Shown here: positions 43,001 to 46,000 of the stretch, in pieces | Layout of the letters: each line of letters begins with the position of its first letter | How positions within the stretch are numbered: the stretch's first letter is position 1 | Assembly (NCBI GenBank): GCA_951406725.2 | Contig: OX597833.1 | Span: 16,306,001 to 16,370,000 of the forward strand | Reading direction: 5' to 3' | Origin: Octopus vulgaris | Taxonomy: Eukaryota | DNA: 64,000 bases | Position numbers and translations under genes: made by a program | The notes under the pieces: generated by a model | Seen by the model: only the letters and a program-made list of their open reading frames with translations | What the model was told of the DNA's origin: nothing | Database searches by the model: none

Positions 43001-46000
43001 TCTACACAGATATATCAATGTAATTAAAATGCTTAAAATGCCAACAAAGTGTTGACAGTCTTTTTCTATCCAAATATTGCTCCCACTGAAATTTGAAGTT
43101 TTACTTACTCGGGTTCGGCTGTCTAGTATAGCATTCCGTTGCCCACGGCCAAGCAATATTGGTTCTTGATCCTGCTCTTCTTCCTCTTCTTCTTCATCTT
43201 CTTCCTGTCACATACAGAAATAGAAAAAAAAAAAACAATATTGTAGAAAACTTAATGACATTATCAACCAATGACTTCTACATTTCCTGTCGGTGGCACG
43301 TTAAAAACAACATTCGAGTGTGGTCGTTGCCAGTGCCGCCGAATTGGCTAACTGCAGAGGATATAAAAAAAAAAACGCATGAAGGAGTTTATAAATATTC
43401 TACACGTTCTTTCACTTCATCTCGAATTCATCTGAGGATTAAAACCCACTGAGTGTGACAAGCCATATTTACCTTAAAACAACATTCAAGCAAAGTCGCT
43501 GCCAGTGCCGCTGGACTGGCTCCTGTGCAGGTAGCACGTAAAAAACACCTTTTGAGTGTGGTTGTTGCCAGAACTGCCTGACTGGCCTTCATGCCGGTGC
43601 CACATAAAAGCACCTACTACACTCTCGCAGTGTTAGGAAGGGCATCCAGCTGTAGAAACTTTGCCAGATCAGATTGAGCCTGGTGCAGCCTCCTGGCTTG
43701 CCAGGCCTCAGTCAAACCCAGTGGTTAGGGCAGCGGACTCGCGGTCAGAGAATCGTGGTTTCGATTCCCAGACCGGGCGTTGTGTGTTTATTGAGCGCAA
43801 ACACCTAAAAGCTCCACGAGACTCCGGCAGGGAGTGGTTGTGATCCCTGTTGTACTCTTTTGCCCCAACTTTCTCTCATTCTTTCTTCCTGTTTCTTGAG
43901 TAACGCTGCAATGGACTGGCATCCCGTCCAGCTGGGGGAACACATACGCCATAGAAACCAGGAAACCGGGCCCATGAGCCTGGCTAGGCTTGAATAGGGT
44001 GGAAAAAAAATATGTGCATATACACATGCATAACAGTGAATAGACAATGTGAATGAAACAAGTTGCATGGGTAAGACAGCAAAAGAAGGGAATGGAGAGA
44101 GTGAGAGAAAGGGGACAGAATGAGGAAGAGATAGGGATGGGTTGGAGAGCTCAATAACAAGAGATGTGTCAGAGGGCTCCACCAGGTTATGTAAATCATT
44201 TGCTTGTGTGTAGAATGCTGTGTGTAGACTATGTGTCTCTGTGTGTAGAATGTCGATGAGAATGAACATACAAGAATACAAGCGATTCAAAGAGAAAAAT
44301 AAGCGTACCTTTAAAAATATACCAATGTGCTTGATCTTCTTCTTCAAGGTGGTCAACAATGTGGCTGGACCCTGACAAGAGAATAAACAAGAACTTAGAA
44401 GAACAGTAAAAAGCTTTTAGGGAACAGAGTAGCAAAATAGTTAAGTAAGTACACCAATTTATTGGTCATTTCGGCCAGCATCAAAAGATTATCTCTTTGA
44501 GAAGTTCATGACCTCCAATATAAGTAAAACACTTTAACTGATATAGAATATTGAATATTTAAGGGTGCAGTATTACATGTTGACCCCATATCATTAATAT
44601 ATTTTAATACCCATGTTCTAAGGCTTAGATAGTTCGACAGGAACAAATGAACCCAAGGCCCAAAGACTGCATCATGCACCATGGTTTCTACGGTTGGATG
44701 CCCTTCCTGGTACCAGTAACTGTACATCATCATCATCGTTTAACGTCCGTTTTCTGCGCTAGCACGGGTTGGACGGTTCGACCCGGGTCTGGGAAGTCAA
44801 GAGGCTGCACCAGGCTCCAGTCTGATCTGGCAGTGTTTCTACGGCTGGATGCCCTTTCTAACGCCAATCACTCCGTGAGTGTAGTGGGTGCTTTTTACAT
44901 GCCACGATCGGTTGGTGCTTAGCATATACTAATTGCTTTTTCCATACTACCAACACTAGTGGGACTGTCGTGGAAGTTGTGTGTCTGTAGTGGATGGAGG
45001 GGAAGGGCAACTTCATGATAATTTCTTACACAGTTGACCAAGATGAAATGTAAAATGATCAGAATCTATTTCTTAAGTTGTGGGCAACCTTTATCGCAAA
45101 GTGGAGAACATGAGACATGGCTTATCATCAGATGGGTTGCACTGCGTAAAAAAAAGTTTGAAGTAATTTTTCATCAGGTATGATATTCAGGATCTCCCAC
45201 AGGCCAGTTTGCTCATGATTGGCTTAACCCTTTACTGTTCATATTATTCTACCAAAATTAATGCTTTTTCATCCACATTGTTTTGAACTAATCTTGCATT
45301 ATCTTACAGCTATGAGATTTTGATGAGGTAGCTGTTAATTTTTAAAACGATATTGTAGGGTTGGTCTGAGAGACCAGATCTGGCCAGTTTGAACATAAAA
45401 CAGGCAGAATACTTTTGGCCGGATATGGCCGGTTTAAATATTAAAGGGTTAAATAGTGCTAGTTCACAGACTGTTGACAAGACAAAGGAGGAAAGGATAT
45501 ACTTTTTTTTAAAACCTGAGAGGACAACCTCACTAACTACATGACATGCAACAAAATTAATGATGAAATCAAATAAATATAGTTTCTAACATTAGTACAG
45601 AACAACCTCATTCAGAAGGAGGTCAATGATATCGACCACCCAGTACTTGAATGGTACTTAGCCCTACCAATTCTATCATCAAAATGAGCTGACACAAATG
45701 TTAGCGCACCAGGCGAAATGCTTAGCGGTATTTCGTCTGGTGTTACGTTCTGAGTTCAAATTCTGCCGAGGTCAACTTTGCCTTTCATCTTTTCGGGGTC
45801 GATTAAATAAGTACCAGTTACGCACTGGGGTTAATATAATCGACTTAATCCGTCTGTCCTTGTTTGTCCCCTCTATGTTTAGCCCCTTGTGGGTAGTAAA
45901 GAAATAGGTATTTCATCTGCCATTACGTTCGGAGTTCAAATTCTGCCGAGGTCGACTTTGCCTTTCATCCTTTCGGGGTCGATTAAATAAGTACCAGTTA

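Follow-up and report, generated by a model that had tools for sequence, protein, structure and literature searches.

The SPT16 gene of Octopus vulgaris carries, inside one of its introns, a copy of the 3' end of another of its own introns. The copy lies within the window, meaning the whole 64,000-nucleotide stretch analysed here (assembly GCA_951406725.2, contig OX597833.1). It is located in intron 9, between window-exons 9 and 10, where it interrupts a SINE; the donor, at the 3' end of window-intron 7, is ~3.8 kb away. The duplication is real and well defined, and is most likely an ordinary repair-mediated duplication. Specifically, we assign a probability of roughly 0.72 to a history in which a break in the intron 9 SINE was mended by copying nearby intron 7 DNA. 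An earlier note on this DNA had proposed that an excised intron RNA served as the template. Of that proposal, the templated insertion into a SINE and the resolution of the right end via SINE similarity hold; the RNA-template step is compatible with the sequence but unlikely. DNA repair yields an equal structure and is common in this genome.

The host gene lies on the minus strand, and its assignment to SPT16 in the earlier note was correct: Pfam matches to the SPT16 N-lobe and the peptidase M24 fold appear in 2 of 6 frames tested, and window-exons 7 and 8 are matched by solved SPT16 chains. The last SPT16 exon is likely the one at 9768-10106 (minus strand), which has a long, repeated tail of glycine, serine and arginine. 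The features of the recipient and donor regions are as follows.

43109..43204, minus strand: SPT16 window-exon 10; its acceptor is 147 nt downstream of the copied acceptor
43292..43349, plus strand: left arm of the recipient SINE; its last bases before the inferred break are GGCT; paralogous contigs align, then continue as normal SINE
43350..43351, plus strand: two-base junction AA, which is either filler or derived from the donor with one substitution; on the gene strand it reads TT, following the AG
43352..43475, plus strand: copied intron tract (3' end of SPT16 window-intron 7), whose minus strand carries the pyrimidine tract and the acceptor AG
43476..43521, plus strand: 46-nt SINE unit piece, a repeat of 43304-43349; its first 11 nt are identical to the donor
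43522..43716, plus strand: remainder of the recipient SINE, whose initial CCTG is the usual continuation of the left arm; not copied from the donor SINE
43717..43898, minus strand: another repeat family, cutting off the 3' end of the recipient SINE; right limit approximate
44309..44371, minus strand: SPT16 window-exon 9, read from sequence
47063..47157, minus strand: SPT16 window-exon 8
47157..47163, plus strand: microhomology to the recipient break region (CCTG at 47157, TGCAG at 47159)
47158..47291, plus strand: donor tract, running from the 3' end of window-intron 7 into the start of the donor SINE
47158-49396, minus strand: SPT16 window-intron 7, 2239 nt
47281..47935, plus strand: donor-side SINE, later split by a nested insertion at 47319-47670

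Extent of the copy and its recipient SINE

Donor and recipient can be read directly from the window. A self-search of 43000-44100 returned one non-repeat partner, pairing 43349-43513 with 47155-47318 at 89% identity. The unique tract within it (43352-43475 versus 47158-47280) has 8 substitutions at 123 aligned sites and 1 indel, a divergence of ~6.5%. The 57 identical nucleotides named in the earlier note are present at 43377-43433 and 47182-47238, a run that is mildly unusual given 9 differences over 124 sites (P = 0.03). Unbroken identity opens, as had been proposed, at the CT of the exon 8 acceptor (43352 and 47158), and a common junction into an adjacent SINE is found in both regions.

Two of the refutations that the earlier note had offered against itself can be set aside. 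A dispersed repeat is rejected: the unique part occurs at 2 places in the 2.8-Gb genome, where counts are lower bounds. Misassembly is rejected for the left junction. Specifically, read run X2, from a different study, yields a 93-nt contig that matches 43314-43406 with 0 differences, spans the left junction, and stops where the sequence merges with the 57 nt common to the donor. Because this contig crosses the left junction without a difference, the structure cannot be attributed to an error in the assembly used here. The right half of the copy is absent among the X2 contigs listed, as an artefact would have it, but the 8 substitutions relative to the donor speak against one as well, and we consider the chance of an artefact negligible. 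Depth in X2 is 7 for the junction contig versus 15 for the donor; this half depth may reflect a heterozygous insertion or a popped bubble.

The recipient is, as had been claimed, another SINE of the donor-side family: its left arm stops at 43349 and the unit resumes at 43522. Across the genome, the left-arm unit is followed by CCTG at 4351 places and by AAC at 1, the present site, a ratio that rejects AA as a SINE variant. The right-hand limit of the copy required revision. The earlier note had carried the copy to 43720, an extent that is rejected: beyond the unique tract, the recipient and donor SINEs have 0 rare alleles in common and 10 and 16 private ones (panel of 103 matches). Over 43476-43716 they differ at 39 of 224 sites (17%), and the panel median for unrelated copies is 17.5%. 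On both measures, the recipient SINE body shows no sign of descent from the donor SINE.

The 46 nt between the unique tract and the resumed SINE, at 43476-43521, differ from the donor SINE at 9 of 46 sites and from the left arm at 9 of 46 sites, and are thus equally distant from the two. The donor SINE, a target duplication and an older tandem unit are all possible sources, although the last would be uncommon, two such units standing in tandem at 24 places versus 3785. Donor origin is demonstrated to 43486 only and is possible to 43521. The copied tract thus measures about 135 bp and at most 170 bp, versus the 369 bp first given.

These same comparisons bear on the idea of 5' transduction, in which an antisense RNA containing the intron end and the whole donor SINE was retrotransposed, with truncation near 47158, beside a separate SINE fragment. 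Copy and SINE do share one orientation, and the 3' end of the recipient SINE has been lost, so a tail and target duplication cannot be inspected. Total divergence is higher in the SINE body than in the unique tract (30/179 versus 8/123, P = 0.008); by non-CpG divergence alone (19/168), the body is not significantly more diverged (Fisher P = 0.22), as transduction would allow. The lack of common rare alleles, the left arm stopping exactly where the unit resumes at 43522, and a landing distance of 3.8 kb, which is unexpected for retrotransposition, all count against it, and we regard transduction as improbable. The nested insertion in the donor SINE (47319-47670) is itself flanked by a 14-nt target duplication (47305-47318 and 47671-47684).

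Probable break repair and the stop at a splice acceptor

On the most likely reading, a break arose in the intron 9 SINE and one broken end paired with, or invaded, the similar SINE in intron 7, 3.8 kb off. Synthesis would then have run ~125 bases beyond the edge of the donor SINE, and the other end would have been rejoined at, or beside, the first site with matching bases, which is the acceptor. On this view, AA is either filler or donor sequence that later changed at one base. We infer the pairing, the copying past the edge and the rejoining from the limits of the unique tract, which are directly observed. The empty site would be that predicted by the SINE family; among the contigs of related organisms, none spans the insertion point.

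The present insertion resembles the repair-mediated duplications defined by Pace, Sen, Batzer, Feschotte 2009 (PMC2671141). It interrupts a transposon copy and exceeds 50 bp. Its donor is 3.8 kb away, within a range of 50 bp to 5 kb, and its length of 135-170 bp is below the limit of about 620 bp. It has a single other place, microhomology or filler at the joint, and no poly(A/T) tail; the A run within the copy is the donor's own pyrimidine tract. According to the cited sections of PMC2671141, 824 of 1136 human copies lie within 5 kb, with a mean length of 162 bp and with microhomology and filler; 278 have intronic donors, 8 touch exons, and duplication of splice sites is mentioned. None of 39 proximal cases has a poly(A) tail. 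The class as set out there shares with the present copy a single-copy insert of at least 50 bp inside a transposon copy, a donor <5 kb away, a length of ~160 bp, microhomology, filler, the lack of a poly(A) tail and an often intronic location. Three differences should be noted. The survey covers vertebrates only, whereas the present copy is from an octopus; one end here lies in a SINE common to donor and recipient, a case that was filtered out of that survey; and an end exactly at an acceptor is a feature of the present copy that the cited sections do not discuss.

Why does the copy stop at a splice site? The breakpoints carry an AA at the left joint, adjoining 4- and 5-nt matches, and an 11-nt identity on the right; the two-base junction and the short end matches are features of the sequence itself. 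Immediately before the CT, the donor reads TAC and the copy TAA, so that 2 of 3 bases agree with exon 8, and the BLAST alignment opens at 43349 and 47155. The claim that the copy contains no exon base is therefore uncertain: identity does begin at the CT, and the copy ends exactly at the acceptor AG if AA is filler, but it includes 3 exon bases if one substitution is allowed. Three readings of the junction may be considered. The donor tract may begin at 47158, with AA as filler (a); it may begin at 47155, 3 bases into exon 8, with one T in common and one later substitution (b); or the join may have been steered by microhomology (c). Every reading costs one or two extra events: a CCTG join leaves 1 base replaced by 2, a TGCAG join costs more changes, and the exon-reaching reading costs one C-to-A. 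Only (a) is compatible with an excised intron. All three are compatible with a DNA template.

Microhomology offers a route to the acceptor that requires no RNA. Leftward from the donor SINE, 47164-47280 contains 0 sites with at least 4 bases matching the break region. The first matching site is 47157-47163, where CCTG matches at offset 0 and TGCAG at offset 4; within 46880-47280, each motif occurs once. CCTG is the acceptor consensus CAG|G on the opposite strand. Because the SINE bases that follow the break are CCTG, the rejoining site would be the acceptor, and a break at the present SINE point would favor acceptors in general. The stop at the splice site is thus probably chance aided by a few matching bases.

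The agreement of 2 of 3 exon bases at the junction could alternatively be a remnant of a larger duplication that once included exon 8 and decayed by deletion, persisting because an exon-less copy is harmless. Exon similarity ends at 43349, however, with none farther left, and the left arm of the SINE meets the junction without a gap. We judge this history very unlikely. An extension of homology into exon 8, which the earlier note had named as grounds for abandoning its reading, was likewise absent left of 43349.

In the RNA alternative, intron 7 would have been excised and debranched, and reverse transcription would have begun at its 3' end with the broken left arm at 43349 as primer; the cDNA would then have been resolved via SINE similarity. 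AA may then copy a UU tail or represent non-templated additions. Unbroken identity begins exactly at the acceptor, the orientation agrees with an RNA template, and the AA, foreign to the SINE family, would read UU on the RNA. However, the CCTG microhomology contains the first exon base, which is absent from an excised intron. A candidate branch A, which we presume from the consensus to lie at about -28 in intron 7, is the same in the copy, which therefore carries no branch-point scar of the kind a lariat would leave, although debranched RNA would leave none. From the literature, additions of one or two U or A to excised introns have been reported (PMC7518892), but the introns described in the cited part are short, structured and 73-130 nt long, compared with 2239 nt for intron 7. 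RNA-templated patches (PMC5110952) and RNA-templated repair in cis (PMC12065846) are likewise on record. In the cited sections, however, the patches stem from distant loci and the signature in cis is whole-intron loss guided by spliced mRNA; the words "lariat" and "excised" occur 0 times in the cited text of PMC12065846. We consider the RNA route unlikely because we guessed a low prior for the capture of an excised 2.2-kb intron.

Several other known systems invite comparison, each to the extent covered by the cited text. Class 2 templated sequence insertions (Onozawa and Aplan 2016, PMC5110952), for which an RNA origin is argued, also patch breaks with microhomology or non-templated bases and lack a target duplication or poly(A), but their donors are distant and they have no tie to splice sites. 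RNA-templated break repair with whole-intron deletion (PMC12065846) likewise involves the gene's own RNA in cis and a scar defined by splice sites; there, the template is spliced mRNA and the product is a deletion with two splice-site ends, whereas the present case is an insertion with one. With regard to SD-MMEJ (PMC7407515), a 5-nt near repeat (43342-43346 and 43350-43354, 4 of 5 alike) covers the filler and CTG, but the required primer repeat is absent here and the present insertion is far longer. Intron transposition by reverse splicing (PMC11146597) also joins an intron 3' end to new sequence in the same gene. It differs in that here the 3' end alone was copied, no new intron resulted, and the joint contains two extra bases.

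Extra bases of this kind would not come from spliceosomal ligation. Were the RNA reading true, the insertion would be direct genomic evidence that excised introns can template repair of the locus they came from, which intron gain by transposition requires, and its signature would allow a simple genome-wide test. It would be a germline fossil of an excised, debranched, UU-tailed spliceosomal intron patching its own gene, i.e., a half-finished intron transposition and the first of a class recognizable by local copies that stop at acceptors, a description we think doubtful. Among the hits of literature searches, none was listed as describing a local duplicate that stops at an acceptor.

Frequency of local duplications

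DNA and RNA routes yield the same product, and one case cannot decide between the two templates. The frequency of comparable local duplications was estimated in a sample of 1.864 Mb, made up of 1.064 Mb around the window and 0.2 Mb from each of 4 other contigs; the pair search omitted tandem satellites and low-complexity words. The sample contains 46 local two-copy pairs, of which 27, the present pair included, have the size and distance of repair-mediated duplications. An earlier pass over the 1.064 Mb alone gave 34 pairs, 19 of them of this kind, and the 0.8 Mb from the four other contigs contains 10 of the 27, 0 to 4 per block. Two-copy cores are strongly clustered: 29 of 85 lie 150-5000 bp apart, and uniform placement would put <1% in that range.

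As an observation in its own right, these counts place candidate short local duplications at ~12-15 per Mb in an invertebrate genome, a rate that rests on unverified pairs in 1.864 Mb, counted without a genome-wide uniqueness or polarity filter, and that may be too high. The cited sections of PMC2671141, a survey restricted to vertebrates, report 0.1-0.65 repair-mediated duplications per Mb of transposon DNA. The candidate density in our sample is far above that range, the two methods of counting being different. On the likely reading, namely repair by copying nearby DNA, the genome would contain tens of thousands of small duplications made by repair, the present copy among them.

How often would such a copy end at an acceptor by chance? 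An acceptor-like motif occurs within 3 bases of an end in 2 of the 45 other pairs, and ~1.5 are expected from a background of 0.8% per end. Beyond these 2 ends there is no evident exon, as judged by the motif only in unannotated sequence. A second acceptor-ended case is thus absent among the 45 other pairs, which counts against the RNA route as a weak test, nearly powerless against a rare process. By extrapolation, and with an assumed 150,000-200,000 acceptors, 2-3 copies in the whole genome should coincide with an acceptor exactly and 8-11 nearly (4-nt) by chance, leaving aside any attraction through microhomology; these ~2-11 coincidences are expected because local pairs are common here. Among the 423 windows considered in this genome (~1% of it), however, chance alone would produce roughly 0.02-0.1 such cases, a figure that gene-rich windows raise, so that encountering one by chance is not assured; this counts against the repair reading. 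A pattern search for other SINE-to-acceptor joins at the present break returned 1 match, which by eye has no SINE context.

Related organisms, possible effects and neighboring repeats

Related organisms diverge from the window by about 3% (B and C) and about 5-9% (D). A first search for the empty site, using 4.4 kb against 4 runs, was swamped by repeats. A second search, using 230 bp against 4 runs, found in organism B one unbroken donor contig over the tract and no copy, which might hint that organism B lacks the copy; in organism D the tract had no cover. Because 43249-43280 is uncovered in all 4 runs, gaps in cover carry no weight. Such an absence, at ~3% divergence, would fit poorly with the 6.5% divergence between copy and donor, as a young copy should differ less. 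In organism D, a contig joins 44725 to 44921, the apparent empty site of a SINE there.

The copied pyrimidine tract and AG, 147 nt before the exon 10 acceptor, constitute a putative spare acceptor in an essential gene. If used, it would be predicted to add 49 codons, with an in-frame stop at codon 17. Run X10, presumably RNA, gave no cover of the copied tract and so speaks neither for nor against such use.

Other repeats in and around the window merit mention. Within SPT16, at about 14100-20320, lies an array with a period of ~100 bp, whose unit contains a 37-nt piece of the recipient and donor SINE family; the array is likely a satellite grown from the SINE. Two local two-copy pairs, both inverted, are present at 38779-38881 and 39475-39577, adjoining a SINE tail, and at 5986-6054 and 6140-6206. 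A direct pair of 452 bp at 91% identity lies 60 kb apart (661-1111 and 61220-61671), and a self-inverted element at 56089-56404, with 76% arm identity, overlaps the donor side of window-exon 4's intron. Finally, two local duplicates in the region around the window (e.g., 353180 and -305061 in window coordinates) stop at the same repeat terminus, which suggests that flanking DNA was captured by a mobile element rather than copied in break repair.
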